A stretch of DNA of 33,321 nt from a virus (taxonomy: Duplodnaviria > Caudoviricetes). The stretch is taken from the IMG/VR virus record IMGVR_UViG_3300048574_000100, positions 1 through 33,321 of that record; one strand, given 5' to 3'. The translations under genes and the position numbers were made by a program. The notes beneath the pieces are model-generated. The model was given only the letters and a program-made list of their open reading frames with translations. It searched no databases and had not been told where the DNA came from. Numbering within the stretch: the stretch's first letter is position 1; the number at the start of each line of letters is the position of its first letter. Positions 466-18,253 of the stretch are shown here, piece by piece.

Positions 466-496
466 TGTCTAAAAAATAGCGTCTGATTACTGCTCT

Positions 497-533: not shown

Positions 534-560
534 AGACAGCTTTTTCGCTACTGGCGGCCA

Positions 561-1510: not shown

Positions 1511-1512
1511 GC

Positions 1513-1854
1513 TCACCCCCTGTTGAAAAATGGCAGCGCCAGGCCCAGCTTCGCCGCGGCGCCGACGGCGGCCAGCATCAGGACAATCTTCAGCACCGAG
1601 AACAGGCCGTCGATACCCTTCGAGAGCAGAATGCGCCGGGCGTCCTCCCAAAATCGCTTCTGTTCCTCCGCGGCGTCGATCAGTCCCTGGTGATAGGTAC
1701 GGTGCGCTTCCAAGTCGCCTCCCGGAAAGGCCTGCTCCCACAAAGCGCGCTCCCGCTCTTCGTATGCATCGAAGTGACGCGCCACGATCAGCTCCACGGC
1801 CTCAATCGTTGGTTGTCGGCGTCGTTCCGGCCCGTCGTATGCTTCTTCGTTCAT
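1513..1854 (-). CDS. Lysis-cassette membrane protein (putative holin/antiholin)
   Basis: 113 aa, YDGPERR N-terminus, one C-terminal hydrophobic helix, immediately upstream of the endolysin. Confidence 0.55.
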   Translation of the reverse strand: MNEEAYDGPERRRQPTIEAVELIVARHFDAYEERERALWEQAFPGGDLEAHRTYHQGLIDAAEEQKRFWEDARRILLSKGIDGLFSVLKIVLMLAAVGAAAKLGLALPFFNRG

Positions 1855-1921
1855 CGGTTTGGCTGCTCCGGTTAGCGATACGGGTCCGCCCCTACTGACG
1901 CCTGTGTCTGTATGCGGCTAT

Positions 1922-2299
1922 TCACAACGTCATGGCATCTGCGATGAATCCGTGTAGATCTGTGACCCCTAGAAGGACGGCCACTTGCTGCACGAACGGA
2001 TTGTCTTCGCTGAATTCTGTCGCGAAATGCCAGCCGTCCTTAATCTCCACCGGCGTTGCGGCTTGGGAGACGTAGGATTCAACCGTGGCGCGCAGACCTT
2101 CCTTATTCAGCTTTTTGCGCATCTGCCATGGCGAACACGAAAGGACTGGAACGGGCATTGGATCGGCAGGCTCCGGGGAGTTTCCATGGGCCAACCATGC
2201 AAGATACTCCTGATAGTCCTGGTTGCAGGGATCACAGGGGATATAGGCGTTGTCCGACAATCGGATAACAGTGTCAGTAAGCGTCAATTTGTAGTTCAT
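1922..2299 (-). CDS. Putative tail fibre assembly/chaperone protein
   Basis: Start reassigned to ATG 2299; [27 protein letters not shown] motif typical of genes following phage fibres. Confidence 0.7.
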
Positions 2300-2301
2300 A
2301 T

Positions 2302-3711
2302 TTATAGCTCCGAGTCGGCGGTCCAAGCCCCTCCGGATACGCCCATGTAGTTTGAGCAGCTCGTGACATACAAGGAGAAGCCTTCGGCGTTTTGTCCGAC
2401 CACCTGAACCGCTCCGGGCGTAGCTCCTGGAGTGCCATTGATATAGTAGGAAGCAGAGAAAATCGTGCATGTAGGGATTACGCGCTTTGTTACTGCGAAG
2501 GAGACCGTCTGCATCCCGGCTGTTGCCCCTAAAGTGGCATACCCTTGGAACTCAGGATGAAAATAACCATACTCGAAGTACCTTTTGCACAGGATTAACT
2601 CCATCCCATACGGGCGATGCTCGAAGGGGGTAACGATACTTCCTTGCTCGTACTGAACCTTCGCAAGGGTCCCAATGCCGAACTCTACGGACTGGTTTGT
2701 TCCGCCTATCGCCGTACCGGTGACGCCAGACGCGCCATAGGCCCCGGAATCCACACGCCCCTGTGCGGTCCCAGACCAACTCAGAACATGCGTCCCGCTG
2801 ATCAGACTTGATCCCTCGATGACTTGCACCAATGATCCCGCGGTAATGTTAAGCGTGGTGACATTGTTGGCTATCGAAAACGTGTAGGTGCAACCCGATG
2901 CCCCCGCTTTCCATCGGTCATGACCGTAAGCACCTGCCGCCAAGGCCACGGTTCCGGTCACGGCGCGTTGGTTGATCGTGAATCCCCCATTGGTGATTTT
3001 GTTGCGCATCGACATTTGAGAGTCGATCCACGACGCAACTGCACCGTTGGTAACCATCGGGCCGGAATGCCCGCTTTGTACTGGAATTGCCGATGAGGCT
3101 GCCTGTGCAGCGCTGTTTGCTGCTTGCGTCGCACTGATCGTCGCCGCAGATGCGCTGTTTGCTGCTTGCGTCGCACTGATCGTCGCCGCAGATGCGCTGT
3201 TTGCTGCTTGCGTCGCACTGATCGTCGCCGCAGATGCGCTGTTTGCTGCCGAGGTGGAACTGGAGGCTGCGGCAGATGCGCTCACCTGCGCGGCGGCAGC
3301 GGCCTGGGCGGCATCTTCTCCCGACGTGAAGCCGAACTGAATCCACTTCGCTAGGTCGATCACAACCCCTGATGTATGCGCCACCGTGCAGCAGTACGTG
3401 TATTCGCCGGACGAGCAGATGTCATTGACGGCGTAGTCCGTGTCCGGCGCCCACAGTCCGCGCAGGTTGAACCCGCCCATCAGATTAAGCACTTCCTTCG
3501 TGAGCGTGGAAACGCCGACGGTCAGATCGCCAAGCCGGCCGTCGTCGCGCTGGATCAGCGCGAGGTTATCGATGGTGGCATTCACCGTCGTTTGGATGTT
3601 GGCAAACTCCGTGTCCAGCGCCGCGGTATTGACCGTCGATCGGCCGGAAGCGTTGATCGCCTCCTGTTGCGAGAAGTCCGTCGTCGGGGTATAAGGATTC
3701 GGTTGAGACAT
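2302..3711 (-). CDS. Tail fibre / receptor-binding protein
   Basis: N-terminal anchor (LDTEFANIQ...LIQRDDG), Ala/Ser coiled-coil repeats, [14 protein letters not shown]...DRW and [19 protein letters not shown] fibre motifs. Confidence 0.85.
3110..3249. repeat. 42-bp tandem repeat (3 perfect copies plus a partial) in the tail fibre
   Basis: GCGCTGTTTGCTGCTTGCGTCGCACTGATCGTCGCCGCAGAT at 3110, 3152 and 3194, partial at 3236; encodes [14 protein letters not shown]. Confidence 0.95.
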
Positions 3712-3790
3712 GGGGATGGTCCTTATGGAAGAGCTTCTTCGAGGCGCAGCAGCCGGGCTTGGCGTAGCGTTGTGGGCATGGATCGCATCG

Positions 3791-5851
3791 TCAGTCCCCT
3801 ATACCCGTTCCAGCCGCCCCGGCGACCCCTCCCATCCCGCCCCCCAGAATGCGCGAGAGGAGTTCAAGCTGTTTTGCGGGGATGTCCGCCGGCTGATTGC
3901 GAAGCTTCGCGCCAAGCGCTGAATTGACGGCGTGCTGGTTCTCCGCAGCGGTTTTGGCTATATTCAACAGGCCGACGCTCTGCGGCACGCCGGGGATGCG
4001 CGAAAGCCATCCGAGATCCGCCAGGGCTGACGCCGTGTTCGAGGTATTCACCGGCGCGAAGGCCGGGAAGCTGTTCATGTAGGCGCCGACCCGGCCGATC
4101 CGGGTGATCTGCTCGACATCCTCCGGCGAGAAGAACGCCGCCAGCTTCTGCCGCATGCCCGGCTGGTTAATGAACCGGGAAAACCGCTCGGGAGAGAACG
4201 CCTTGTCGCCGGTGTTCTCGCCGAACGCCGCGCGCTCCAGTGCTGCGCCGAACTGATGGCGCGCCTCCGCGGCGGCATCCTCCGGCAGCGCGCCGGCCAA
4301 TGCCCGCACTTCGTCCGCCTTGCCGTTGATCAGGAACCGCCGCACGAAGTCCTGTGCATTGACATCGCCGTTCACTGCCGCCTTGAGCGCAGGAATCGCC
4401 TCGTGCGTCTTGAACCGGTCGCGGGCCATGCCGCGCGCGGTGTCGAACATCATCTTCGCGTCCTCGCCGACGTTATCGGCGATGCCGGCCTTGTTCAGCG
4501 CGTCGCGCACGGCGCCGACAGCCTTGGCCTGCGCCGGGTTCCCACTGTTCATCGCGGCCCGCTGGGCCTGAGAAAGCACGCTGTCAATCTGCACGGCGGT
4601 ATTGACGTTGAACGGGATCTTCCCGAGCGTGACGTCATTCAGGATGCCGCGTACCTCCTCCGGCAACCACCGCCCGAGCATCTGTTCGTCCAGCGTGGCA
4701 TTGGCCTGCTGGCTGAATCCGGCGCTGTCCATCGGCGCCGCCCGGCCGAGGTGATCGCGTGCCTTCCCGTAGGCCGCGTCGACCTGGGTCTTCGCGGCAT
4801 CGTCGACGCTGCGCAGGGACGACAGCAGGGCCTCGCCGGCGGAATTCTCGTCCGCCGCGCCCCGCGCCCGGCCGGTGATCAGATCCTGCAGGCGCGTGTT
4901 CTGCTGCTCCAGCCGCTGCATGAGCGGTTCGCCGACGCCGGAGACGCCGCGCAGATTCCGCTCGCGCGCGAACTGTGCCGGGTCCCGGGTGATCTGCCCA
5001 AGCGTGGGATCGATGCCGAGGGCGTCGAAGTCCTGCTTCCGCAACAGCGCCGCCGGGTCGATTTTCTGCCCGCCGTCCAGCGCTTGGCTGACATGCTGCC
5101 GCAACGTGTTGATCTGCGCCCGATCCAGTTCGATACCTTCGCGGCGGAAGCGATTGACCGTCTCGCGTAGGATGGCGTCGGCCTGCGCCGCCTTCTCCGC
5201 GGGGGAGAGCGCCGCCACCCGGCGGGTGACGGCTTCGCCGAGGCTCGACGCCACAGGCGCCAGCGCGCCGCCGGCGGCAGCGCCGGAGGCCGTCTGGAGG
5301 ATCTTCTCGGGGAGGTAGCTCTGGTCGGCATTCACGACCGGCGCCGCGGCCCCGCCCAGAGCGCCCGCCCGCGCTCCCTGCGCCACCTTGCCAAGCTTCG
5401 TTGCGGCGTTGATCGGCGCCGCCTGGGCAATGACCAGGTTGGCCGGCGACGCCACGTTCCCGGCGAAGCGGGCCGCGTCGAACCCATCCCGGCCGGCGGC
5501 GGCGCGTGCCTGTTCGTACTCGGCGTTCTTCGCGTCAATCGCTTGGTTGATGGTGGTGTTTTGCCCGAGCCCGGACAACTGCGCAGCCCCGACAACGGGG
5601 TCGGCAGCGCCAAGCATCACACCATGCACAGCAGAGCCTTTTCCAAGACCGACGCCAGCGACTGAAGGATTTGAAAGCCATTGCTGCGCCCCTTTCGGCA
5701 GCATTGAGACGAGCTTTTCGCCGAGGCTCAGTTCCTGATCGTGGATCGGCCGCTGGGCCTGGGGCGGCTCGGCAGCGCTTTGCGACGGGATCAGGTCGTC
5801 GAAGCCCCGACCGCCTTGCCGAGCCGGCAGCAGATCATCGAACGCGCCCAT
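3791..5851 (-). CDS. Putative DNA ejection / internal virion protein (686 aa, P22 gp16-like position)
   Basis: Ala/Gly-rich helical protein with FDDL N-terminal repeats; last of the ejection block before the fibre. Confidence 0.7.
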   Translation of the reverse strand: MGAFDDLLPARQGGRGFDDLIPSQSAAEPPQAQRPIHDQELSLGEKLVSMLPKGAQQWLSNPSVAGVGLGKGSAVHGVMLGAADPVVGAAQLSGLGQNTTINQAIDAKNAEYEQARAAAGRDGFDAARFAGNVASPANLVIAQAAPINAATKLGKVAQGARAGALGGAAAPVVNADQSYLPEKILQTASGAAAGGALAPVASSLGEAVTRRVAALSPAEKAAQADAILRETVNRFRREGIELDRAQINTLRQHVSQALDGGQKIDPAALLRKQDFDALGIDPTLGQITRDPAQFARERNLRGVSGVGEPLMQRLEQQNTRLQDLITGRARGAADENSAGEALLSSLRSVDDAAKTQVDAAYGKARDHLGRAAPMDSAGFSQQANATLDEQMLGRWLPEEVRGILNDVTLGKIPFNVNTAVQIDSVLSQAQRAAMNSGNPAQAKAVGAVRDALNKAGIADNVGEDAKMMFDTARGMARDRFKTHEAIPALKAAVNGDVNAQDFVRRFLINGKADEVRALAGALPEDAAAEARHQFGAALERAAFGENTGDKAFSPERFSRFINQPGMRQKLAAFFSPEDVEQITRIGRVGAYMNSFPAFAPVNTSNTASALADLGWLSRIPGVPQSVGLLNIAKTAAENQHAVNSALGAKLRNQPADIPAKQLELLSRILGGGMGGVAGAAGTGIGD

Positions 5852-7260
5852 CAGAACGCCCCCTGTGTGATGCCCATGTCGCGCAGGCGCTGGATGACGG
5901 CGCTTCGCGGCGCGCCGTTCTTCACGGCCCGCTGCGCGTCGGCCAGGGCGTCACGCTCCGAGGCATACCCGAAATCGGAGAACGATTTCTTCTGCTCGCC
6001 CTTGGCCTGGCCGCTGTGCTTCAGGTTGTACGCATCGCTGACGCGCCCCCGGGCGCTGCCTGCGTACTCGACGATCTTCTTCAGGCTGTCGCGCATCTGC
6101 TCGACCGACTGCGCGTTCTCCAGTGCGGCCAGGTTCGCTTCGAGGCGCTTGCCTTCAGCATCCGACACCGCGCCGAGCGCGCCGCCCGTCTTGGAGTTGT
6201 TGCGCATATCCTGCAGCACGCCGAAGCCGACCTGCGATTTGAGCGTGTTCAGCTTGGCCTGCGCGTCGGCAGCGGCGGTCCCAGGAATGTTGGGAATGAC
6301 GCCGCGCACGCCGGTGATGCCGTTCAGTCCGGGGTGATTCAGCACCTCGTTCGCCGCCGCGGCCAGCCGGTCGAAATTGTTGAGCGAGCCGTTGAGCGCG
6401 GCCGTGTCTTGGTTGAACTGCCCCTGTATTTTCAGGTCGGCCGGGCCGCCCGGGATGGCTTCCATCGTGCCGTCTGCTTTCCAGCGGTAGCCCGGTGGCG
6501 GCTTCCCGCCGCCGCGTTCGTTGGTCGCCTGAATCCTATGCAGTTCGGCGGACGCCACTGCATTTCCGGCCTGAGCGCGATTCTCGGCAATGGCTGAGGC
6601 GTTCTTGTCAAGGTACGGCTGATTGAACGCCACCTTGCCGGTGGATTGGTCGCCGGTGCCGAATTCGGCGAACTTGTACAGGTCGCCCTTGCGCGCCGCC
6701 TCCAGGCCATTCAGTCCCTGCACGCCGCCGGCGGCCAGCGCCTGATCGATCTGCGCCTGCTTCGCGGCATCGACGTACGCCTGTGCCATGTTGTGCGAGT
6801 CGCTGTTACCTGTGCCGGCGAGATTGCCCATTGTCGCGGCGCGTGCGGCCATGTACCGGTCGAGTACCGCCGGCGTGGCGAAACTCGGCGCCGACTTGGG
6901 CGTGATCTGCGGCGGGCCGTACTGATCGGGCGGCAGCGCCTCGATGTTGGTCCCCCATCCGCCCGTCCTGGCGAAATTCTCCAGTTCGGCGCCTTGCGTC
7001 TCGGGCAGTCGGGCCAGGGTGGCGGCCAGTTTCGTGCCGTACTCCGGTGTCTGGAACGCAGCGCGGCGCTTGATCTCGTCAGCCTTTTGCGTGTTCAGTT
7101 CGGCCTGCGACTCCGAGTCCCGCGTCTTGGCCCCGAGCAGTTCCTGTTCGGCCATGGTCTTGGCCATGGCGTTGTAGCCCGCGTCGTAGGCCTTCTGCCC
7201 GCCGAAAATGCCTTTCCCGATGTTGGAGAAGGCCTGTGCGATTGCAAGTCCGTTGGCCAT
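5851..7260 (-). CDS. Putative DNA ejection protein (469 aa, gp20-like position)
   Basis: PPGYRWKADGTMEAIPGGPAD and GALGAVSDAEGKRL motifs seen in podovirus ejection proteins; overlaps the next gene. Confidence 0.7.
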   Translation of the reverse strand: MANGLAIAQAFSNIGKGIFGGQKAYDAGYNAMAKTMAEQELLGAKTRDSESQAELNTQKADEIKRRAAFQTPEYGTKLAATLARLPETQGAELENFARTGGWGTNIEALPPDQYGPPQITPKSAPSFATPAVLDRYMAARAATMGNLAGTGNSDSHNMAQAYVDAAKQAQIDQALAAGGVQGLNGLEAARKGDLYKFAEFGTGDQSTGKVAFNQPYLDKNASAIAENRAQAGNAVASAELHRIQATNERGGGKPPPGYRWKADGTMEAIPGGPADLKIQGQFNQDTAALNGSLNNFDRLAAAANEVLNHPGLNGITGVRGVIPNIPGTAAADAQAKLNTLKSQVGFGVLQDMRNNSKTGGALGAVSDAEGKRLEANLAALENAQSVEQMRDSLKKIVEYAGSARGRVSDAYNLKHSGQAKGEQKKSFSDFGYASERDALADAQRAVKNGAPRSAVIQRLRDMGITQGAF

Positions 7261-7263
7261 TCC

Positions 7264-7992
7264 TTACCCCATCAGGTTGAGTTTGGAATACTTCGCCGCA
7301 TTGCTCAGGCTCGGGCTCGAAAGCAGGTTGGCGTTCCCGAGTCCATTCCCGACGTCGGCGCCGGCGGTGGAAGCGGTTCCGAAGGCATCACCGAGCCCGC
7401 CCGAGAGATACGCCGTGCCAAGCCCCTGCGCGAACCCGCCGAGCGCCATCTGCCCGGAATCCACCTTGCCCGCCGCGACGATGCCAGGTTGCGCGGCGCT
7501 GTAGTCGCCCTTGGCGTTGCGGCTGATCGTCGCCAGGTCGGAGGCGTAGTTCGCATTCGTGAGGGCTTCGTCGTTCAGCATGTCGTTGACGCCGCGCACC
7601 CGGCCCATGAGCCGCGCCATGTCCACCGAGTCCTGGAACTGCTGCGCGAGCTTGCTCGACCGGTCGGCGATGAACGAATCCGACAGCTTCCCGGAGGCCT
7701 GCGCCGGCGTGCTGATCTCCTCTCGCGACTTCACCAGCGACTGCGCCAGGGACTCGCCGGCGGCTTCCTTAGCGTCTTCGAGCCGTTCGGCACGCTTGGT
7801 CATGTCGTACTCGTCGGCGTTCTCCAGCGCCTTCTGCTCGGCCTTCCGCGCCCATTGGTCCTGCTGCGTCAGGGCGGCGTTGATGGCGTCCTGCTGGCGC
7901 TGCGCGGCGTCGTTCGTGGCATCGGCCTGCGTTTTCGCCCCGTAGGCGGCCGCGATGGCGGCGGCGGCGTAGGGCACCCATGCGTAGCACAT
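7264..7992 (-). CDS. Putative internal virion/ejection protein (242 aa)
   Basis: Start reassigned to ATG 7992 (MCYAWVPYAAAAIAAAYGA); Ala/Gln-rich helix, Gly-rich C-terminus. Confidence 0.7.
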   Translation of the reverse strand: MCYAWVPYAAAAIAAAYGAKTQADATNDAAQRQQDAINAALTQQDQWARKAEQKALENADEYDMTKRAERLEDAKEAAGESLAQSLVKSREEISTPAQASGKLSDSFIADRSSKLAQQFQDSVDMARLMGRVRGVNDMLNDEALTNANYASDLATISRNAKGDYSAAQPGIVAAGKVDSGQMALGGFAQGLGTAYLSGGLGDAFGTASTAGADVGNGLGNANLLSSPSLSNAAKYSKLNLMG

Positions 7993-7994
7993 GA

Positions 7995-8936
7995 TCAAGT
8001 CCCCGACTTCGACACGGTGCCGGACGTGCCGGACGTGTTGGAGAAATAATTCCCGGTGTTGCTGCCGTAGGTCTTCGCCGCGGCGGCGCCCTTGTTGTAG
8101 GAATTCGTGTTGTAGGCGTTCAGCAGGTCGGAGAACACGTTCGCCATCTGCTCGGACTGCGCTTCGTTCTTCGAGGCCTCGGCGTTCGTCTGCAGGGTGC
8201 TCAGGGCGTTCGCGACTGCCGTGTCCTGGTCGACGCCGGCGACGATCTTCGAGATCAGGTTCAGGCGCGCCGTCTCGTCGTTGTTCTTGAGGTTCGTGTA
8301 GGCCGTGTCCGCGCGGTTGGCGACGCTCAGCAGGCCTTTGTCGAGCGCCTTCTGGTACTCCGTATCCATGTCGTTCGCCATCGACGATCCGACGATGCCC
8401 ATGCGGGCCTTGGCGAACTTCAGCTGGCGCTCGGCGTCTTCCCGGTCTTCCTCGAGCTGTTTGGCGTAGTAGGCGCGTGTGTCTTCCTTGGTGGAGTCGT
8501 ACAGCGAAGAACGCGCTGCGGCGTTCTTCGAGGCGTCGGACTCGACGGTCTGATACACGTCCTGGTAGATGGGCGTATAGCTGTCCTTGTTGCTGGTCTC
8601 GCTGGCATCGGAAACCCATTGGTCATCACCCTGGACCCAATGGCCGCCGCCATCGTTGTTGAGCGGACTGAGCTTGTTGTACTGTTCGACGCTGATGGGC
8701 TTGGTCGTGCTCCCGTCACCGAACTGGTAGCCGGTGATGATCTTTTCCCCAGTGGGAACCTGCGACGTGGAACTGCCGACGCCGAAGATGGCATTGACCG
8801 CATCGGTTCCGGCGGCGATGCGCGCCTGACGCGCGGCTTCCTGCTCGGCAGCGGTGTTGTCGCTTTTGCTGCTGCCCTTGAGGTACAGCCGCCGTCCGTC
8901 CGCCGAATACCCGCTAAATTTGATCCTCGATAGCAT
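7995..8936 (-). CDS. Putative ejection/pilot protein (313 aa, gp7-like position)
   Basis: Basic N-terminal leader ending RRLYLKGSSKS, helical body; first gene of the ejection block. Confidence 0.65.
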   Translation of the reverse strand: MLSRIKFSGYSADGRRLYLKGSSKSDNTAAEQEAARQARIAAGTDAVNAIFGVGSSTSQVPTGEKIITGYQFGDGSTTKPISVEQYNKLSPLNNDGGGHWVQGDDQWVSDASETSNKDSYTPIYQDVYQTVESDASKNAAARSSLYDSTKEDTRAYYAKQLEEDREDAERQLKFAKARMGIVGSSMANDMDTEYQKALDKGLLSVANRADTAYTNLKNNDETARLNLISKIVAGVDQDTAVANALSTLQTNAEASKNEAQSEQMANVFSDLLNAYNTNSYNKGAAAAKTYGSNTGNYFSNTSGTSGTVSKSGT

Positions 8937-9342
8937 GTCGTACCACCTCGTAGGTTTTCTCGAAGCCGTATCGCGCCAGAAACCGCGACATGGCCGAGGA
9001 GCACGAAGCCTCGATTACCGTGACACCCATACCGTACAACCATTTTTTGAACGTGACGAAAAACCGTTCGTAGGCTTCCGCCATGTTCCTCCCGCCCAGT
9101 GCCATGATGTTGCAGGCCGACATGCGCGGGTAGTGCAGGAATTCGAAGACCATCGCCAGGACGACTTCACCGTCGTCGATCGCAATGGCGGCTGTTGCGG
9201 TTTTCCCGACGCACGCCCGGCGCAGATCATCGAGGTTGAATTCCCCGCGCGCCGCGTGCTCGACGACCGGGCGGATCAAGCGCTCGACGTCCGGCCAGTA
9301 GCGCGCCAGCAGTGTGTCGTCGGTCAGGAATAGAGGCGTCAT
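8914..9342 (-). CDS. GNAT-like virion morphogenesis protein
   Basis: 142 aa; NIMALGG...GVTVIEASC...RFLARYGF acetyltransferase-like pattern. Confidence 0.6.
   Translation of the reverse strand: MTPLFLTDDTLLARYWPDVERLIRPVVEHAARGEFNLDDLRRACVGKTATAAIAIDDGEVVLAMVFEFLHYPRMSACNIMALGGRNMAEAYERFFVTFKKWLYGMGVTVIEASCSSAMSRFLARYGFEKTYEVVRHAIEDQI
9031..9062 (-). promoter_or_regulatory. Candidate late promoter, copy 3 (inside the GNAT gene, upstream of ejection genes)
   Basis: - strand TTTTCGTCACGTTCAA-N10-TACGGT; 15/16 match to the other two copies. Confidence 0.5.
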
Positions 9343-9785
9343 CGCGCAATCACGTAGCAGTAGAAGTCGGTGCCGTTCTTGGCGAATCCTCGCATCACGG
9401 ACTCGCGGCGGAAGCCAAGCATTTCCAGCCAGACGTGCGCCTGTGTGTGGAAATCAGCGGAGCAGGCCTGGATACGGTGCATTTCCGAGGCGAGCAGCGT
9501 GTTCAGCACGGTCTTGCAGGCATGCGCAACCTCGACGCCGGATTTGCCGATGTCGTCGGTGCCGATCAGCCAAGCCTGCCCGACGCCGGGAAACAGGGGC
9601 ACAACGCCGAAGACGCAGACGGGAACGCCGTTTCGTGCCACGCAGACCCTGCAGCCCGGTGCCTCCGTGAATTCAGCCTCGAACCCGTCGTCGGACCACC
9701 GCGTCAGGTTGATTTCGTACCGATCATCCGCGCGCAGGTGGCGGCAGACGTGCAGGATTTCAGGCGGGGTGGCGGATTTGATCAT
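9339..9785 (-). CDS. GNAT-fold protein (T7 gp13/DUF2833-like)
   Basis: HLRADDRYEI, GVGQAWLIGTD, AHVWLEMLGFRRE motifs. Confidence 0.7.
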   Translation of the reverse strand: MIKSATPPEILHVCRHLRADDRYEINLTRWSDDGFEAEFTEAPGCRVCVARNGVPVCVFGVVPLFPGVGQAWLIGTDDIGKSGVEVAHACKTVLNTLLASEMHRIQACSADFHTQAHVWLEMLGFRRESVMRGFAKNGTDFYCYVIAR

Positions 9786-9813
9786 TGACGTACCAAACGG
9801 AATCGTCTAGCAT
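9785..9813 (+). promoter_or_regulatory. Sigma70-type promoter, antisense to the late operon
   Basis: TTGACG (9785-9790), 17-bp spacer, TAGCAT (9808-9813). Confidence 0.7.
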
Positions 9814-9940
9814 GGGGCCGTCGCTCAAATGGGAGCGGAAATGCTGGTTGCCGGTGTGACGGGACAACTCCGAGAGTAGGTGCGAATCCTACCCACCGCC
9901 TCTGGCTGATAAACCCCATCACCCGATGGGGTTTTTCTTT
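9814..9940 (+). ncRNA. Candidate tRNA-like small RNA (not a canonical tRNA)
   Basis: D-arm-like CGCTC-AAATGG-GAGCG; T-arm-like GTAGG-TGCGAAT-CCTAC; closing stem CGGTG/CACCG; bracketed by a promoter and a terminator; no ORF noticed. Confidence 0.6.
9911..9940 (+). terminator. Intrinsic terminator of the antisense small RNA
   Basis: AAACCCCATC-ACCC-GATGGGGTTT followed by TTCTTT. Confidence 0.8.
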
Positions 9941-10329
9941 CATGGAAGTCCTTTGGGAATAATCGTCATTACGCTCATGTTCCCGTCTTCATCAAGGAAC
10001 AAAGGCATTTTTGCGTCATAACGCTTTTTCGCCAACGGGTTAATGGCCGCCACCAGCGCGGGAAGCGCTTTGCCAAGAACGGTCGTGGATTTCGATATCA
10101 GCCCCGTCCCGATCAGGTCCTCCGGTGACACCATGGGCGCTTCCAGCGCCTGGCCACCCGCGCGCTCGTAATCCGGAATCCAGCCTTGCCCGGTCGGCTG
10201 AGACATCACCGAATTTTGCCATCCCCGGGCGGCCTCCTGCCGCGACAGCAGATCGGCGACTCGACTCAACCCATCCGGGTTTTCCTTGGGTGCCCTCACG
10301 CCCATGAACGCATCGGCCAGGCCGCTCAT
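9940..10329 (-). CDS. Hypothetical virion-operon protein (129 aa) with AT-rich C-terminal segment, possibly internally deleted
   Basis: ATGA-type overlap with the tail hub gene; compositional shift at ~10040. Confidence 0.65.
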   Translation of the reverse strand: MSGLADAFMGVRAPKENPDGLSRVADLLSRQEAARGWQNSVMSQPTGQGWIPDYERAGGQALEAPMVSPEDLIGTGLISKSTTVLGKALPALVAAINPLAKKRYDAKMPLFLDEDGNMSVMTIIPKGLP

Positions 10330-11711
10330 ATCGCTGCTAAATTCTCGTAATAGAAGGTGATCGCGTGCAACTCGAAATCACCCGAGTTCTGCACGTTGAT
10401 CACCGGCGCGATACCCACGGAAACGATTTCGACCGGGATCATCTCGCCCGGTCGCGTGTCGCCCGACAGTTCAACCGGCGGCGTCACGAAATCCGGCTGC
10501 CGAGCGTCAAACTTGATGGAGAAGTCGCCCGTCCCAACCATCACGGCATCCATGCCGACGATCTGCTTCAACACGCCGGGCGTTTTGAAGTCCAGGTACG
10601 GGAATTCGATGCCGATGGAGAAATTCACCCCGGCGTCGGTGTAGGCGTTGTCGTCCAGCTTGTACACCGTGTCGCCGGCGCGGAAATACAGGTCGCCGTC
10701 GAGCTCCGTTACGTCGGTGATCGCGAACGGGAACTCATACTTCGACCAAGCGGAAATCTTGCTCGTGCGCGAGAACGAATAGACGTAGGCGAACGAGCCC
10801 TTCATCACCCAAAACTGGCCGCCACCGCGGAAGTAGAAGGCCCGGATGTCATCGCCGGCGGAGAAATTCTTCTTCACGAGCGAGTCGATCGGGCTGCCGA
10901 CGTCGACGTCGATCATGTTGCCCGTCGTCGACTGCGTGGTGATCGACCGGATGCCGTCGTAGGAGGCGAAAAACACGTCGCCGGCCATGTTGGCGGCGCC
11001 GTGCGGATACGGGCAGCCGATGTCCAGGCCCTGGACGAACTGCATCTGCGCCGGATCGGGATCGACTGTCCAGACCTGCGACGAGTCGCGGAAGAACACC
11101 ACCATGTTCCCGGAGTACTCGCCCAGCGCCGTCGGCGTCGTAACGCCGCTCTGCTGGACGCCCACGCCCAAGAATCCGGCGTCGCCCGATGTCGTCCAGT
11201 CGCGCGGCGCGGACGTGGCGCTGAACCGCACCACGTCATCCTTCGTAGCGAAAATCTTCGACGCCTTCTTCGATACAGCCGCGGTGTGCGGGCAGTTCGT
11301 GTCCGTGATCACCGGTGGATTGGTGCCGTCCAGGTAGTGGTGCCGGATGGTGGCGTTGTTGTACTCGGCCGAGACGTAAACGTAGCCGTTGAACACGTCC
11401 GCCCAGTGAATTTTCGACACTTCGATGGCCGGGTACGACGGATGCGGGATCTTGTTGGCAACGAACCGCGTGTCGGCATGTGACACCGTGCCGGTCGCGT
11501 AAAACGTGTTCAGCTTCCCGCCGGCGGCGCGCAGGCCTTTGGTGCCCGTCTCCAGCACGGAAACCAGCGTCAGTCCAGGGCGCTTCTTGATCGTCTTTCC
11601 GGTCGTGACGTAGCAGTTCGTCAGGACGCGCAGCCGGTTCGCTTCGGAGACGGACGCGCCCTTGCGCAGGTCAAGGCCGATGGAAAAATCGTCGAACGTG
11701 ATGGCGGGCAT
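10326..11711 (-). CDS. Tail hub / tail tubular protein B (P22 gp10/T7 gp12-like)
   Basis: Start reassigned to ATG 11711 (TAATG overlap); LTNCYVTTGKTIKKRPG N-terminal motif; beta-rich; follows the adaptor. Confidence 0.8.
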   Translation of the reverse strand: MPAITFDDFSIGLDLRKGASVSEANRLRVLTNCYVTTGKTIKKRPGLTLVSVLETGTKGLRAAGGKLNTFYATGTVSHADTRFVANKIPHPSYPAIEVSKIHWADVFNGYVYVSAEYNNATIRHHYLDGTNPPVITDTNCPHTAAVSKKASKIFATKDDVVRFSATSAPRDWTTSGDAGFLGVGVQQSGVTTPTALGEYSGNMVVFFRDSSQVWTVDPDPAQMQFVQGLDIGCPYPHGAANMAGDVFFASYDGIRSITTQSTTGNMIDVDVGSPIDSLVKKNFSAGDDIRAFYFRGGGQFWVMKGSFAYVYSFSRTSKISAWSKYEFPFAITDVTELDGDLYFRAGDTVYKLDDNAYTDAGVNFSIGIEFPYLDFKTPGVLKQIVGMDAVMVGTGDFSIKFDARQPDFVTPPVELSGDTRPGEMIPVEIVSVGIAPVINVQNSGDFELHAITFYYENLAAI

Positions 11712-12349
11712 TACACCATCCTGGGCTTGGCGAGATACACCTCGTCGACGTCGCGGCGCGCGAATACCGCCTTCCCGCGGCTCTGCGCCTTGAGCTTGTT
11801 GAGCATCGAGTTCAGTTGATTCGCGTAGGCCTGCCCGTCCGCCTGCTTGTAGTGCAGCTTGGCGTTCGTGACCGCGTGCAGGAAGATCAGCCCGTCGTCC
11901 AGGCTGGCGCGGTCGTTGTCCTGCGTGAAGCGTGCGGGACTGGCGACGTAGTACCGGCGGATCGTGTATTGCGCGTCCGGCGCCGGCCATACTTCCATCT
12001 GCGCGTACCGCTCGTAGCGGCAGGGCTGCGATTGCGAATCGTCAGATCGCATGCCCCACGAGATGCCTTCCTTCATCGGCACCCAGCGGGTTCCGTCCCA
12101 CACCGCCACGTCGCGAATGTTCCCCGGATCGCAGTCCTCGGCGTAGTCGTACAGCGTCTGCCCCTGGCCGAGCGTTTCCTCGTCGAACCTGATGAGATGC
12201 CGCCACTCGAAGGTACTGAACAGCTGGTCCTGCGCGTTCTGCAGGAAGGAGTCGAGCAACCCGGAGTTGATTCCAGAGGAACCTTGGGCGCCAAAACCGA
12301 GCCTCCGGGAGAGCTCGCTGCGCAGATCGCCCAGGGTTCGGTACATCAT
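11711..12349 (-). CDS. Head-tail adaptor / tail tubular protein A
   Basis: TLGDLRSELSRRLG...FLQNAQDQL...EVWPAPD motif; position after the capsid genes. Confidence 0.75.
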   Translation of the reverse strand: MMYRTLGDLRSELSRRLGFGAQGSSGINSGLLDSFLQNAQDQLFSTFEWRHLIRFDEETLGQGQTLYDYAEDCDPGNIRDVAVWDGTRWVPMKEGISWGMRSDDSQSQPCRYERYAQMEVWPAPDAQYTIRRYYVASPARFTQDNDRASLDDGLIFLHAVTNAKLHYKQADGQAYANQLNSMLNKLKAQSRGKAVFARRDVDEVYLAKPRMV

Positions 12350-12675
12350 TCGGCGTCAGCCTCGGCCTTCTTCGGACGGCCGGCCTTCTTCTTCGGCGCT
12401 TCGTCCGCTCCGAACGCCTCCAGCGCGTCGGCGCCGATACCGATGATGCGCTCGACGTAGGGCTGCCCGGTGTCGTTGCGGCCGTAGCAGTTCATCAGGC
12501 GATCGTATTCCTCGCCGGCGTCGATTTCCGTCACGCCGTAGTCGCCGTCGACGACCGTTACGTTCGCATCGCCGTGGATGTCCTTGAGAATGCCGATCTC
12601 GTGTTCGAACACCGTCACGGGAATTTCTTCCGCCATGTCGCGGTGGACCAGAGCCTTCGCGTATTTGACTTGCAT
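12346..12675 (-). CDS. Hypothetical phage protein (109 aa)
   Basis: GGAGG RBS; C-terminal KKKAGRPKK; coupled to the adaptor gene. Confidence 0.75.
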   Translation of the reverse strand: MQVKYAKALVHRDMAEEIPVTVFEHEIGILKDIHGDANVTVVDGDYGVTEIDAGEEYDRLMNCYGRNDTGQPYVERIIGIGADALEAFGADEAPKKKAGRPKKAEADAE

Positions 12676-12684
12676 CGTTCCTCC

Positions 12685-12711
12685 AAAGAAAAACCCCGCC
12701 CGAAGGCGGGG
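12685..12711 (-). terminator. Intrinsic terminator after the capsid/decoration genes
   Basis: - strand CCCCGCC-TTCG-GGCGGGG-TTTTTCTTT. Confidence 0.85.
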
Positions 12712-12720
12712 AGAACCGCA

Positions 12721-13059
12721 TCAGGCCAGCAGCAGGCCGTCCACCGAGCCGGACGTAAACGTCGTCACGTTGAGGCGCATGCGGCGGTACATCGTCACGA
12801 CGCCCGCCTTACTGCCCGAGTTGGACGCCGGCGCCACGAAGGTCAGCAGGTCGGTCCACGTCGCCGAGCCGTCCGCGACCGAATCGAGGTCGTTCGTGCC
12901 CTGGATTTTCGCCGTCCCGACGAAGGCGCCGTTGGTCGGCTGAATGATGGCCTCCGCGGAATCGCCGCGCTGGAACTTGGCGTTCGTGTCTTCCGCCTTG
13001 ACCGACGCGCCCGCCGTTGCGGAGGTCAGCGTGCCGAGAGAGACTTGAGAAACAGACAT
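12721..13059 (-). CDS. Putative capsid decoration protein (112 aa)
   Basis: Small beta-rich Thr/Ser/Gly protein between the major capsid gene and the terminator; AGGAGG RBS. Confidence 0.6.
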   Translation of the reverse strand: MSVSQVSLGTLTSATAGASVKAEDTNAKFQRGDSAEAIIQPTNGAFVGTAKIQGTNDLDSVADGSATWTDLLTFVAPASNSGSKAGVVTMYRRMRLNVTTFTSGSVDGLLLA

Positions 13060-13071
13060 GTGATCCTCCTG

Positions 13072-14133
13072 TTACGAGATGGCGAGCACGGCGTGCGCGT
13101 TCGCGCGGTTGGTCGTCAGGGCGCCCCGCCAGGTCAGCGCCCAGTAGTACACGTACTTGTCGTACACGCGGGGCGGCTTGCGGGTCACCATGTCCTGACC
13201 GTCCATCGGGCGCAGGCTCAGGTGCTTCGAGTTGATGAAATAGCAGCGCTTGGTCCAAGCCGGCGTCGGGTTGACGAAACCGCCGAAGTTGTCGTCGAAC
13301 TCGGGACACCACTGCATTTCGACGCCCTTGTAGAAGACGCCCGAGATGCCGCCGTCCAGCTTCCGCTGCTCGCCGCCGACGTAGGTGATCTGCTGGCCGA
13401 CGAGGTTCATGGCGGCGATGTAGGCGTCGATGAACGCCGCACCGGAGAAGATCAGGTCCGGACGCCCGCCGTTCTTCACGCACGCGCGCCAGTTCGCTTC
13501 CATCACCGCCAGGAACGCCACCGCCTGGGCCTGCGTGGTCGGCACCGTCATGGACAGCGTGAAATTGTTCCGCCACCAGGTATTTCCGGAACGGCCGATG
13601 CCGCCGACGGTGCCGGAGGTCGGATCGGTGGCGACGATGGCGTCCAGGCCGGTAACCGCATCCGTCGAGGACGAGCCGTCGAGGTGCAGGTACATCGAGA
13701 ACTTTTCCTCGAAACCGAGCCGCAGCGCTTCCGTCTGCTCCTGCAGGAGGTTGGTGAGTTGCACCTGCTCGGCGCGCGAGGCGTTGCCGCCGCGGCTGTT
13801 GTCGTCGATGGCAATGCCGTTCTGCGCCAGCCGGTCCTCGTCGAGCGAGAAGCCATCATGCGCGGAGCGCCACGGGAATTGCGACTGTTCGATAGTGACG
13901 CGCTTGTTGTACGTGACCACGGACGCGCCGTTGAACCATTGGAAATTGCTCTGATAGCGATAGCGAAGCTGCTCGACGATGTACTGCTTGCCGCCGGGGA
14001 ACGTCTTCTTCTTCGCCATCAGTGCCTTGAGGAACGGACGCTCGACGGCAATCTGATCGATCGGATTGTTCTTGAGGTAGAAATCCAGGGCGATCTTGCC
14101 AGCGTCTTGAAGTTCTTGCGCACTGAAGGGCAT
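13072..14133 (-). CDS. Major capsid protein
   Basis: 353 aa, follows the scaffold; GLDAIV...GTVGGI.RS.NTWWRN and terminal GALTTNRANAHAVL motifs of HK97-fold phage capsids. Confidence 0.88.
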   Translation of the reverse strand: MPFSAQELQDAGKIALDFYLKNNPIDQIAVERPFLKALMAKKKTFPGGKQYIVEQLRYRYQSNFQWFNGASVVTYNKRVTIEQSQFPWRSAHDGFSLDEDRLAQNGIAIDDNSRGGNASRAEQVQLTNLLQEQTEALRLGFEEKFSMYLHLDGSSSTDAVTGLDAIVATDPTSGTVGGIGRSGNTWWRNNFTLSMTVPTTQAQAVAFLAVMEANWRACVKNGGRPDLIFSGAAFIDAYIAAMNLVGQQITYVGGEQRKLDGGISGVFYKGVEMQWCPEFDDNFGGFVNPTPAWTKRCYFINSKHLSLRPMDGQDMVTRKPPRVYDKYVYYWALTWRGALTTNRANAHAVLAIS

Positions 14134-14234
14134 GATGAATCTCCGTGAGGATGAACATGGGTTCTGGTCCTGGTGGCGGATTCAGGAAATTCAGCCGGTC
14201 AGCGCGGAGACGAATTCCGCTACGTCTGGCGCGT

Positions 14235-14266
14235 TTATAAATCGCGGGTGTTCAACGTGACGAAAA
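14235..14266 (-). promoter_or_regulatory. Candidate late promoter, copy 2 (upstream of the major capsid gene)
   Basis: - strand TTTTCGTCACGTTGAA-N10-TTATAA. Confidence 0.65.
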
Positions 14267-14286
14267 AAAAGCCCGCCGAAGCGGGC
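14263..14286 (-). terminator. Intrinsic terminator after the scaffold gene
   Basis: - strand GCCCGC-TTCG-GCGGGC-T8. Confidence 0.85.
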
Positions 14287-14309
14287 CAAGAGGGAGGTGC
14301 TGCGGGGGA

Positions 14310-15278
14310 TTAACCATTGCCGTAGCCCAAGCCTTGCTGCAGGGCTTCCAGCATGTTGTTCGGCTGGCGTGCGCCGGCCGTCTGCCCGGACGCGCGCAAC
14401 GGCGCTGGGGCGGCCGCAGCGGGCCGGGCCAGCGGGACGGACGACAGGGCCTGATACAGCATGCGGACCTGTCCGGCCCAGGCGTGCGGCGGGAAATTCC
14501 GGGCAATTTCCGGGATCTGCTTGAGGATGATTTCCTCCTTCGCGGCATAGTCCGGGTCCTTCTTGGCCCACTCGACGCCCAACCGGTTGATTTCGTCGAT
14601 CGCGCCGTTCTTGGCCTGCATCGCGCTGTTGGCGCTTTCCTGGCGCTGATTCCGCTGTTCGAGCGCAATCTGGTTCTCACGCTGCATGGCGCGCATCCGG
14701 GCCACCTCCAACGCCGAATCCTCGGTGATCTGGTAGGCATTGACCTTCTCGCGCAGATCCGGGTATTCGGCCAGCGGATCGACCGCGCCGAACGACTTCC
14801 CGGTAGCGATCTGGTACTGCCGAATCTGCTCCTGCAGCATTTTCCCGACCTGGTCCATGTTGCCAGAGCGCAAGGCTTTCAGGTAGTCGAAGACCATCGC
14901 GAAATCTTCCGGAGCGGCCTTGGTGTCCTGCATCACCTTGCGGATACCGTCCAGGTTCGAACGCAGGTGCGTGATTTCCTCGTCCTTTTCCTTGACGCGC
15001 GTCACCAGCCGCTGGAATCGCTCCTGCGCCTTCTTGGTGATGCCTTCCGGCGGCGTCTCGTCGTCCTCCGGCGTGGGCTCCTGCGACTCGTCCGGCTTCG
15101 GCTCGACGGAATCCGGCTTGGCCTCGTCAGGTTCCTGCGCCTCGGGCTGCTTCAACCCCTCCGCAATGGCGTCCAGCATCGACGCCGGTTCATTCGTGAT
15201 CTCCTGTTTCTCAGCAGATGCAGCGCTTTCCTGTGCGACGTCCGGCTGAGCGACTTCCGTGTTCAACTCTTGATCCAT
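14310..15278 (-). CDS. Capsid scaffolding protein
   Basis: Acidic disordered N-terminus, coiled coil, directly upstream of the capsid gene; AAGGAG RBS. Confidence 0.75.
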   Translation of the reverse strand: MDQELNTEVAQPDVAQESAASAEKQEITNEPASMLDAIAEGLKQPEAQEPDEAKPDSVEPKPDESQEPTPEDDETPPEGITKKAQERFQRLVTRVKEKDEEITHLRSNLDGIRKVMQDTKAAPEDFAMVFDYLKALRSGNMDQVGKMLQEQIRQYQIATGKSFGAVDPLAEYPDLREKVNAYQITEDSALEVARMRAMQRENQIALEQRNQRQESANSAMQAKNGAIDEINRLGVEWAKKDPDYAAKEEIILKQIPEIARNFPPHAWAGQVRMLYQALSSVPLARPAAAAPAPLRASGQTAGARQPNNMLEALQQGLGYGNG

Positions 15279-15291
15279 GATTTCTCCTTTT

Positions 15292-15561
15292 CTACATCAT
15301 CAGCAACAAAACGGCTTCTTCTCTCCTGCGCCTGGCCTTGCGAATCTCGTCCTGCATGAGCGCCGCGGCCAGCATTTCGCCGCGGAGCCTGGACACAACA
15401 GCAGGAGGGAAAGCCTCTTCGACAACCTCTTCGTCCGCCCGGCGAATCCGCTTGATCGGCCCCCACGCACCGAGCGATGCGGGAACAAAGGCTCGATCGA
15501 ATCGCCAGGACTTCGAGCTGAACGACTTCGCTGAAAATGAACTACGGTGAAACACCGGCAC
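15292..15561 (-). CDS. Hypothetical phage protein (89 aa)
   Basis: FHRSSFSAKSFS N-terminus, RRRREEAVLLLMM C-terminus; fills the operon gap. Confidence 0.6.
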   Translation of the reverse strand: MPVFHRSSFSAKSFSSKSWRFDRAFVPASLGAWGPIKRIRRADEEVVEEAFPPAVVSRLRGEMLAAALMQDEIRKARRRREEAVLLLMM

Positions 15562-16162
15562 CTCGCCACGGACTGGCCTCGCTGCCGTCGCCGATTACCT
15601 CGGCACTGTTCATTTGCTTCACGTTGACCGGGATCGCAGTTGCCTGAAGTGCCGCGAGCACCGCAGCGGCGATCTGGTCGGCTGTCGGATAAGGCGCCTG
15701 CTCGCCGTCTATGTGATACGCAGCCAAGTTATCAGCGTATATGGCGGCGTGAAGCTGGTAATCGGCGGCTACGTCGCGCGATGCAAGGGTCAGCACGGCG
15801 TACGCGCCCGCTAGATCTGCCGAGATAGGCCCGCGCACGGCGTAGGCGCACTCGTCATCGCCCAGTGCCCGACCAAGAACGGTATAAATGGAGGAATTGC
15901 CTGCGCCGACCGCTGCGGCGCTCAAGACCGAATAGGATGTCGTACAGTCCGCCAGGGCCGCGCCGCGGATCGAATACCCGGCGGGAGAATCGACCGACAC
16001 CGCGCCGCGCAAGGCAAATGCCGCCGCGACGGGGGCGCTGACGGCATTCCTGACGATGTAGGACGTCGTCGCTGAATCGGCGTATACCGATGGTGAGGTT
16101 GATGTCTCTTGGCGCGCCTTTCCTATCGCGGATTTACCGAGGGGGAGCGAACCGATGGCCAT
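15542..16162 (-). CDS. Putative virion structural protein with ~15-aa beta-repeats
   Basis: Recurrent AD...Y.V pattern; part of the fibre cassette. Confidence 0.6.
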   Translation of the reverse strand: MAIGSLPLGKSAIGKARQETSTSPSVYADSATTSYIVRNAVSAPVAAAFALRGAVSVDSPAGYSIRGAALADCTTSYSVLSAAAVGAGNSSIYTVLGRALGDDECAYAVRGPISADLAGAYAVLTLASRDVAADYQLHAAIYADNLAAYHIDGEQAPYPTADQIAAAVLAALQATAIPVNVKQMNSAEVIGDGSEASPWRGAGVSP

Positions 16163-16165
16163 TAA

Positions 16166-16639
16166 TTACTCCGGCCAGCTGTAAAAAATGTCTATCGCCT
16201 CCGGGGCATCACTGGACCGTACCAGCGTTTTTAATTCCCGCGCTCGCGCATGCAGTAGAGAGACATGAGCCGCCAGCGCGGGAAGAATACCCATGAGTTC
16301 AGTGGCAGACAGTACGATGCTGGTGTTATCGGCGCAGGTCCATTCGATGGAGAATTCGGCGCCGGTATCCACAGCCATCCTCGCCGCGCACCAAGCGCCC
16401 GAGAGGCGCTGCACAGAGACCGCATCGGAATCGAAGACTTTTCCCAGATACGTGAATCCGGACTGCTCTTTCACATCGCGCAGTCGATTGACCTCGGCGC
16501 AGTAATACTCCCGCCGGGCATGCAGCAATTCTTCCGGTGTGGCCAGACGCGACCCGTCTTCGAAGTCGAGCCGGTATGTTCCGTCTTCAAGCTGGGCGAT
16601 GCCCGCACAGCCAATGACATCGAAGTATGGGATCAGCAC
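16166..16639 (-). CDS. DUF4376-like fibre assembly protein
   Basis: GFTYLGKVFDSD.VSVQRL and IEWTCADNT...LSATEL motifs. Confidence 0.75.
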   Translation of the reverse strand: MLIPYFDVIGCAGIAQLEDGTYRLDFEDGSRLATPEELLHARREYYCAEVNRLRDVKEQSGFTYLGKVFDSDAVSVQRLSGAWCAARMAVDTGAEFSIEWTCADNTSIVLSATELMGILPALAAHVSLLHARARELKTLVRSSDAPEAIDIFYSWPE

Positions 16640-17739
16640 GACAATTCTCCTTTGTAGGAGAGTCCAGAAATCTCGAATACAGCGCCGCCGATCTCCAGCA
16701 TGTTCAGCGTGGTGCGACCCACCGGCAATGCCGTGCCAGGAAAGTAGGCAAGCAAGCTCTGATACAGATTGGCGGTGTCGTAAGTCGGCTCGCAGTCATA
16801 CGTCAGCGCTGTGGAGGTATTCACGCCGATCCCGACATTCCCTGCCCCGCCGCTGCGCCGCAGCCCGGTGCTTCGAACAGTCAAGGTCACGGCGTCGGCC
16901 AGCCCGAGCATGCACATTCCATAGCTCGTGACGTTGTTGAAATATCGGACCGTTGCCGTGGTGTAGGTGTGGTACGTACTCAGTACGAGCGCCCACGCCT
17001 TCGATGCCCGGTTGTACATGTTCCACAGCATCCGGTACTGCGCGGAGTCTTCTGTCGTGGTCGTCGAGCGAGGCATGAAGGAGCCCAGGTACAGGCGGGA
17101 ATGATCCCCAGCCTTGCAGTACATGCCGTCCTGCATGGTGATGTCTGTTGCCCGAGCCGTCGCGCTCGACCACGCCAGCAATTCCAGCGCCAGATCCCCT
17201 CCGGAGAGGTAACCGAACACGTCGTAACCGACTGTGCTGGTCAGGGTTCCGAGTGCAAGGGTCTTTTCCGTGAATTTCACCAAGCGCCAGTCTGTACCAT
17301 CCCACAGTGGAATCACGTCATGCTCGGACGGCGTGTAGTAGAGGCTGGTCGCGCCCGTCACGTCGGATAGCGTCACTGGCGTGCCGGAGGTCAGCGTCAA
17401 CCGTCCGCCGGGCCTGACCGATTGAAGTGCGAGCAGGCGCTGATTGATCCGGTCGGCCGTGTCGATCACAAATACCTTTGCGCTGGCCGATAGGGAGAGC
17501 GCCGCGCCGGTCGAACTCGCTTCGAGCGTGCCGCGCGTCAAGGTCGTCCCGGAATGGGTGTAGGCGCAGTTCCGCGCTATTTCCCAGGCGCCCCCGTCCT
17601 CGATCAGGATATCGACTACGGAATTGGACGCATACGCTGCGGCGAACGATTGATAGCCGGACTCGGCCGCGCCGAGCGTAATCGATCCAGTTCCGGGCGT
17701 ACCGGACACGCCCATGCCGACTCGGTTTTTAGCTAGCAT
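16633..17739 (-). CDS. Second fibre-like virion protein (368 aa)
   Basis: GTPGTGSITLGAA.SGYQSF...TTLTRGTLEASSTG phage fibre N-domain; GGRLTLTSGTPVT domain; followed by the DUF4376-like gene. Confidence 0.7.
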   Translation of the reverse strand: MLAKNRVGMGVSGTPGTGSITLGAAESGYQSFAAAYASNSVVDILIEDGGAWEIARNCAYTHSGTTLTRGTLEASSTGAALSLSASAKVFVIDTADRINQRLLALQSVRPGGRLTLTSGTPVTLSDVTGATSLYYTPSEHDVIPLWDGTDWRLVKFTEKTLALGTLTSTVGYDVFGYLSGGDLALELLAWSSATARATDITMQDGMYCKAGDHSRLYLGSFMPRSTTTTEDSAQYRMLWNMYNRASKAWALVLSTYHTYTTATVRYFNNVTSYGMCMLGLADAVTLTVRSTGLRRSGGAGNVGIGVNTSTALTYDCEPTYDTANLYQSLLAYFPGTALPVGRTTLNMLEIGGAVFEISGLSYKGELSC

Positions 17740-17748
17740 TCCAGCCTC

Positions 17749-18240
17749 TTACGGGTTCGTGTCGCCCTGCGTGCGCAGGGTAAAGCTGTCTGCGTAGGCT
17801 GCCGCCGCTGCGTTAACCGTCCGCCGCACCCATACGGCCTTGTGCGCACCCGGCCCCAGGTCGCCAATGCTTAGCCCGCCGGCCAGCGATGACGGAGCGG
17901 AAAAAATGACGCCGGCCGGCGCCGTGTTTTCGTCCGTGACGGTCTGCTCCGTGCCGCTGACTGCCGAGGTACCGAGGCCGATCGCAACGTCGGTGTCCGG
18001 CGATGGTGTATTTGTTTGAATCCAGATCTTCGCGCCGAGCAGCGTCAGCGTTCCGTGATTGTTCCGCACGTAGATGCAGCGGTATTCGATATCGCCCGAT
18101 GCCGCCTCTGCGCTGGATACGTCGTCGAAATAATTGCTTGCCGCCGTGCTGGACAGGGCGCCCCCCAGGGAAACCGACGGATCGGCGTTGGCGGCGCCGC
18201 CAGAGAGGCGGTATTGGATATCTGACGAAACAATTGGCAT
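17749..18240 (-). CDS. Putative virion structural protein (163 aa)
   Basis: Start reassigned to ATG 18240 (AAGGAG RBS); SLGG...FDDVS..EA.SGDIEYRCIYVRN...AVWVRRTV. Confidence 0.7.
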   Translation of the reverse strand: MPIVSSDIQYRLSGGAANADPSVSLGGALSSTAASNYFDDVSSAEAASGDIEYRCIYVRNNHGTLTLLGAKIWIQTNTPSPDTDVAIGLGTSAVSGTEQTVTDENTAPAGVIFSAPSSLAGGLSIGDLGPGAHKAVWVRRTVNAAAAAYADSFTLRTQGDTNP

Positions 18241-18253
18241 TTGTGACTCCTTT

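Follow-up and report, generated by a model that had tools for sequence, protein, structure and literature searches.

What is encoded in the short interval that separates two minus-strand genes of a phage virion operon and that carries, on the opposite strand, the signals of a small RNA gene? The interval lies in a linear virus record of 33,321 nt, which was analyzed at full length (the window); the record is ~75% complete and is the one genome from which the element is known. The window encodes terminase, portal, capsid, tail-fibre, lysis and replication functions together with a divergent repressor pair, a gene set from which we infer a temperate, podovirus-like phage. The records that contain related loci, from Methyloversatilis and Neisseriaceae, point to a host among the betaproteobacteria. 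The element sits between a 129-aa ORF (9940–10329) and a 148-aa gene (9339–9785), both on the minus strand. The 148-aa product is an internal virion protein (phrog_308, E 2e-18), to which we presume an acetyltransferase-like label also applies, and no clear Shine-Dalgarno motif is present in the sequence upstream of its gene. The answer that we tentatively prefer, as a possible rather than a probable one, is that the interval holds a remodelled tRNA-mimic moron, independent of the repressor and serving as a putative decoy.

On the plus strand, a sigma70-like promoter, TTGACG-17-TAGCAT (9785–9813), matches 9 of 12 consensus positions, and its −35 box overlaps the start codon of the 148-aa gene. 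It is the sole sigma70-like site within bases 1–20000, where shuffles give 4.4 expected. Sigma70 transcription starts ~7 nt past the −10 box, which predicts a start near 9820 (9819–9823) and casts the GC-rich stretch GGGGCCG (9814–9820), the 7 nt that follow the −10 box up to the predicted +1, as the discriminator. Alternatively, GGGGCCG could be the 5′ acceptor strand of a former tRNA; it is identical at 7/7 positions to the 5′ end of an Azospirillum tRNA-Ala (alignment A4), a match that is not significant by BLAST (E=4). An intrinsic terminator (9908–9940) ends the unit, with a hairpin of 10 pairs (9911–9934) and a T run that is found on the plus strand only.

Between these signals lie four paired elements: a D-arm-like hairpin with loop AAATGG (9821–9838; 6/6 pairs), in which a D-arm motif with U8, A14 and GG occupies 9821–9836; a small hairpin (9860–9872; 4/4 pairs) that corresponds in position and length to the variable arm of class II tRNAs and is spaced as in the tRNA-Ser(GGA) of locus L165; a tRNA T-arm with loop TGCGAAT and G at position 55 (9876–9892; 5/5 Watson-Crick pairs); and a closing stem, CGGTG/CACCG (9852–56/9894–98; 5/5 pairs). 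The initial annotation had described all of these, with the promoter and terminator, and a check of the sequence bears out each one. In 20,000 dinucleotide shuffles of the gap, with motifs that were written from the tRNA consensus after the site was seen, a T-arm arose 13 times, a D-arm 71 times and the two in order never; the window contains the T-arm motif once, whereas shuffled versions of it give 0.11. The features of the element are real and non-random. The earlier idea of a separate, tRNA-like RNA gene is supported by the anatomy and by the statistics of signals and arms; the body as a whole folds no better than its shuffles (z −0.31; 184/500 shuffles) and reaches significance only with the terminator included (z −2.72).

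The body within this gap of 154 bp had also been called non-coding, but on the minus strand a 53-codon ORF (9782–9943) that was missed earlier spans the gap, which is therefore not non-coding. The start of this frame (9943) overlaps the stop codon of the 129-aa ORF and its stop (9782) overlaps the start codon of the 148-aa gene, each as ATGA, and both ends belong to a chain of four consecutive ATGA overlaps. The frame remains open in 4,328 of 20,000 shuffles and ATGA ends are found in 4/22 other genes, so that the chance of a coupled frame, calculated post hoc as open frame times ATGA times one-in-three frame, is about 0.013. Exact coupling at both ends is what a real gene for a 53-aa peptide would display, with the RNA features as incidental, but we regard such a gene as very unlikely: the codon index of the frame is 0.37, below both shuffled open frames (0.44 ± 0.045) and called genes (0.50–0.78), no family or homologue of the product was found, and the promoter, T-arm and terminator on the opposite strand would be left unexplained. 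Because its codon use is unadapted, the frame likely acts as a translational-coupling relay that passes ribosomes to the 148-aa gene, and in doing so it may also melt the hairpins in the late mRNA. The 148-aa gene starts with NTGA in all nine relatives listed, and in the four read by eye an upstream stop codon overlaps its start. The closer relatives of the 148-aa protein include P0002, at 77% identity, and P0003–P0006, at 62–65%; P0005 and P0009 are found on long contigs. An imperfect 17-nt inverted repeat joins 9762–9778 with 9885–9901 and could pair the late mRNA over codons 2–8 of the 148-aa gene.

What shape would the plus-strand RNA take? In the ensemble predicted for starts at 9819–9823, the D-like hairpin forms at the 5′ end (pair probability 0.96–1.0), and a long stem (9843–58/9893–9906) closes a three-way junction with the small hairpin and the T-arm. 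This predicted stem, P1 (9843–9906), combines 9850–58/9893–99 with 9843–47/9902–06, the latter lengthening the closing stem. The T-arm has a probability of 0.80–0.86 from these starts versus 0.03–0.17 from starts at 9812–9817, and it forms also from 9810 and 9825. The acceptor stem pairs at 4/7 positions in the canonical register and is not stacked as a 7-pair stem on the T-stem; two acceptor-like registers pair at 6/7, but with a gap of 1 or 3 nt to the T-stem. The anticodon stem pairs at 2/6 positions around CTGGTTG, short of a 5-pair stem with a 7-nt loop, and with this stem lost the RNA cannot decode. No RCCA lies 3′ of the predicted acceptor end. From the T-loop to G9850 the model counts 12 pairs with two bulges, with U9849 unpaired before G9850, and U9849/G9850 is a plausible predicted RNase P site; a published account describes acceptor-plus-T-arm substrates and a 12-pair ruler for this enzyme (PMC11143913). 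The lack of RCCA weakens the prediction. In the predicted fold, the distance between the D-like hairpin and the T-loop probably keeps an elbow from forming. The idea of a CsrA sponge was dropped, the three GGA motifs lying outside loops (judged against the CsrA consensus).

A 5′ leader, a closing stem and two hairpins with predicted RNase P maturation are shared with the C4 antisense RNA of phages P1 and P7 (RF01695; PMC5320573), although in the element three stems with a closing stem and leader exist in the predicted fold only. The element could then be a trans-acting antisense RNA matured by RNase P, with a target either in a host mRNA or in the quarter of the phage that the record lacks, and with a seed that would lie in the released 5′ piece (9820–9849) or in the loops. 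The C4-like topology and a record that is only ~75% complete speak for this possibility, which the remaining evidence makes distinctly unlikely. Unlike C4, the element lies in the virion operon rather than in an immunity region, has a true T-arm, and lacks both a′/b′ loops of 7–11 nt and a target in the window; its junction linkers of 0–3 nt leave no room for antisense loops. Outside the element, no stretch of the window matches the body over more than 10 nt, which is under the shuffle mode of 11, and the best seed to 43 start regions scores −20.3 versus −22.8 in shuffles, with 39 of 40 shuffles better. The sole match to the RF01695 model (8.9 bits) is elsewhere in the window. Membership among C4/CI-type immunity RNAs, one of the earlier suggestions, is not supported by these results.

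The suggestion of a Y-RNA-like scaffold fares no better. YrlA (RF02553) likewise imitates a tRNA, with D- and T-like arms, and does not decode, and RNase P cuts some YrlA RNAs (PMC4201824). YrlA is ordered T, acceptor loop, D, whereas the element is ordered D, small hairpin, T; YrlA also has a GNCGAAN0-1G motif near its 5′ end and a neighbouring Ro60 gene. The RF02553 model has no match at the element, and the incomplete record holds no match to PF05731 for a TROVE/Ro60 gene. The allo-tRNAs, including the inactive allo-tRNA(UAU), are irregular class II-like tRNAs on mobile DNA, some of them inactive in translation and near toxin-antitoxin genes (PMC5389517). By contrast, a check by hand yields neither an 8/4 nor a 9/3 acceptor branch for the element, it is without an anticodon arm, and its D loop has 6 nt instead of forming a tetraloop. 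Class II tRNAs themselves (tRNA-Ser/Leu; RF00005) share with the element the T-arm sequence, D-arm motif, variable-arm hairpin and overall spacing; the element is set apart from them by the missing anticodon stem, canonical acceptor and terminal CCA and by the absence of an RF00005 or default ARAGORN score. Rfam gave nine weak matches, none reaching the cut-off and most of them on the terminator, and none at gathering in the window. The element thus resembles RNase P-type tRNA mimics such as C4 and YrlA in shape only, and it fails membership of the tRNAs, C4, YrlA and the allo-tRNAs; the initial annotation could assign it to no known family, and with Rfam, ARAGORN and the C4 and YrlA models all without a match at the element, we reach the same position.

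Does the element nevertheless descend from a tRNA? ARAGORN at default settings calls no tRNA gene at the element, and with relaxed thresholds it makes 53–351 calls over the window, which we discarded as noise. The RF00005 covariance model, which detected tRNAs in 14/14 control genomes, has no match here at E ≤ 10. The T-arm, unique in the window, gives a more positive picture. Its 17-mer is the T-arm of ARAGORN-called tRNAs in 5/7 metagenome matches; the other two fell outside that ARAGORN run and look like coding DNA. A 20-nt stretch is identical to one inside the tRNA cluster of Lactobacillus phage LP65. A covariance model built from the single sequence of the element, and so of limited reach (R1), matched 3/151 genomes, the best match (32 bits) being a tRNA-Ser(GGA) whose spacing of variable arm and T-arm equals that of the element. 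A pattern of variable arm plus T-loop matched viral contigs 12 times, and the sole RNA among the matches is a phage tRNA-Ser. When the element is compared pairwise with 96 collected tRNAs, its best score does not surpass that of T-arm-fixed shuffles (94/200); for the mean score over the 22 long tRNAs, 8/200 such shuffles score higher. Together, the sequence comparisons weakly support an origin from a class II tRNA. The LP65 cluster also contains an unannotated tRNA-like gene with the same T-arm and without an ARAGORN call (L164:1141–1230).

If the element is a former tRNA gene, it may simply be on its way out, a decayed class II gene with its own promoter and terminator and an RNA without a role. 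This close rival, which we rate as somewhat doubtful, accounts for a length collinear with tRNA-Ser(GGA), for CT-GGT-TG at the place of the anticodon loop, for the singleton status and for folding not above shuffles; tRNAs above cut-off are carried by 4/14 related virus records, and tRNA fragments are common in mobile DNA (PMC9897764). Simple decay fits less well with the pattern of change. In the class II register, every position of the D, variable and T stems is paired and promoter and terminator are intact, yet whole-length identity is at most 45/93 to any of eight aligned tRNAs, and the acceptor has been replaced by a new stem of 10–12 pairs. Moreover, a 5′ acceptor strand would stay untranscribed from the promoter at 9785–9813, and no integrase lies alongside in the record. 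Such uneven divergence, deep outside the stems and signals, argues for selection, an argument that is inflated because the features were noticed for being intact. The ordinary decayed tRNA that the initial annotation weighed did not appear as a clear match, RF00005 and ARAGORN being silent and identity so low. Among the related records, G004 carries a tRNA frame of 22.7 bits with D- and T-arms intact and a swollen anticodon arm (L188:1501–1593, minus strand), with two irregular tRNAs downstream.

Homologues of the element were found in none of the searches of viral contigs, phages, plasmids and genomes. The 14-mer D-arm pattern matched 119 viral stretches, and none of the matches listed continued like the element. 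The D-plus-T pattern had no match in viral contigs or in 401 genomes, and the acceptor-plus-T pattern none. BLAST against the 401 genomes gave seven weak matches, none homologous on inspection; the T-loop 14-mer occurs in two of these genomes, in neither case in a tRNA; BLAST against phages and plasmids returned short arm matches only; and model R1 matched none of the 14 related virus records. A literature search, mostly outside subscription journals, found no published description of the element. The RNA is absent upstream of the 148-aa gene in all 17 related loci listed, some of which are from the same record. In these loci, judged by eye, either the conserved 554-aa virion gene (10326–11990 in the window, minus strand; probably tail-nozzle, a label taken from its position) adjoins the 148-aa gene, as it does in close relatives, or another gene intervenes. 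With relatives lacking it, the element is an insert. By eye, a different, shared gene occupies the slot before the 148-aa gene in L126, L127, L129, L130 and L134, suggesting a variable position.

The location itself allows a regulatory role in cis. Convergent transcription or duplex formation could silence leaky late transcripts in the lysogen, the tRNA arms serving only to stabilise the RNA. The site is just ahead of internal-virion and lysis genes, the RNA is by position perfectly complementary to the relay ORF, and the −35 box overlaps the next start codon; minus-strand 9885–9903 can in addition pair with codons 2–8 of the 148-aa gene (−21.3 kcal/mol; 12/300 shuffles; post hoc), a weak sign. 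We think such a brake unlikely. The element is absent from relatives, interference needs no particular sequence and leaves the tRNA arms unexplained, and 35 nt before the start codon lie outside the coverage of the RNA.

A repeated 13-bp operator-like motif of the phage has 11 matches in the window versus 2.2 expected, with three sites at 29290–29351, in the divergent cI/cro repressor gap, and two at 32002–32039; within 2 mismatches, there is none at the promoter of the element. The putative expression of the RNA in a lysogen is therefore compatible with the data. Downstream of the repressor, in the lysogenic direction, the window carries a gene for a ClpP-like SDH-type protease (30861–31901, plus strand).

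We propose that the virion operon captured a tRNA gene at a variable slot, where it was reshaped into a non-decoding RNA of ~120 nt. Host sigma70 would transcribe it from about 9820, free of repressor control and hence in the lysogen as well. The former acceptor 3′ strand would re-pair with 9850–58, and RNase P could then cut at U9849/G9850, leaving a stable acceptor-plus-T-arm molecule capped by the terminator. As a decoy, this RNA would occupy host proteins with affinity for the tRNA top half; as a guess, the partner could be a tRNA-directed nuclease, a modifying toxin or a processing enzyme. Meanwhile, ribosomes leaving the 129-aa gene would likely continue along the 53-codon frame, across the hairpins, and so reach the 148-aa gene, which lets the operon tolerate the insert.

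Several lines of evidence favour this tRNA-mimic decoy. First, promoter, T-arm and terminator have the right order and spacing, and no shuffle reproduces D- and T-arms together. Second, the T-arm equals real tRNA T-arms, and the best model match is a tRNA-Ser(GGA). Third, the fold with a tRNA top half dominates at starts 9819–9823, where sigma70 would begin. Finally, the promoter is free of an operator, acceptor-plus-T-arm RNase P substrates are described in PMC11143913, four ATGA overlaps run through the site, and related phages carry tRNAs, one with a swollen anticodon arm. Against the decoy stand the lack of homologues, a body at the shuffle mean, a tRNA match equal to T-arm-fixed shuffles, the missing RCCA, the distance of the D-like hairpin from the T-loop, the formation of the T-arm from starts 9810 and 9825 as well, and the fact that no partner protein was found in the window; in particular, scans of 46 ORFs of the window with PHROGs and 20 with Pfam revealed no toxin family and thus no cognate toxin. 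The tRNA-Lys of phage T5, which acts against PARIS, offers a parallel for a phage tRNA-derived gene that is possibly aimed at a host tRNA-directed defence (PMC11464382). Phage tRNAs that counter tRNA nucleases are working molecules that replace the cut host tRNA, whereas the non-decoding element could only titrate, and the PARIS nuclease AriB recognises the anticodon stem-loop. That loop is absent here, which counts against the decoy, and any target of the decoy would need to recognise the T-arm or acceptor instead.

A more elaborate version, which we hold to be doubtful, treats the locus as a 160-bp cassette with work on both strands: an anticodon-less top-half decoy, matured by RNase P in the lysogen, and on the other strand a ribosome relay that is indifferent to sequence. 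The relay would let a terminator-bearing RNA gene sit in a coupled virion operon, in a slot that relatives of the neighbouring gene use for enzyme cargo. More broadly, a functional element would mean that a phage deploys a non-decoding tRNA shape, and not a working tRNA, to act on or against the proteins with which its host handles tRNA, and would show an RNA moron fitted into a coupled operon with translation unbroken. The case also cautions that gene callers can overlook coupling frames that lie within short gaps between the genes of phage operons.

The 129-aa ORF on the other side of the element is part of the insert. It consists of an N-terminal module common to longer phage proteins and a low-GC tail, with GC falling over the last 30 codons. 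No relative of the same length was found, the one such protein among 72 candidates being the ORF itself, PHROG and Pfam hold no family that covers the N-terminal module, and Atlas look-ups with the 129-aa and 53-aa products yielded no usable lead. About 66 residues match a 327-aa protein at 61% (1/1607 match), and a similar module is present in a 518-aa protein with HELGGH; both relatives sit in different gene contexts. The tail of the 327-aa protein presumably resembles an ADP-ribosyltransferase-type domain, for which Pfam gave no support. In three phages, the module is joined to unrelated C-terminal parts (window 9940–10329; L149:3950–4933; L150:3692–5248), an arrangement like that of a polymorphic cargo family. 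Given the drop in GC, the ORF may be a cargo gene whose enzyme part was lost on arrival of the RNA cassette, or it may simply be a short form. Its low-GC tail also contains a partly palindromic 12-nt direct repeat (9964–9975 and 10014–10025, 50 bp apart), which could be a candidate protein-binding site.
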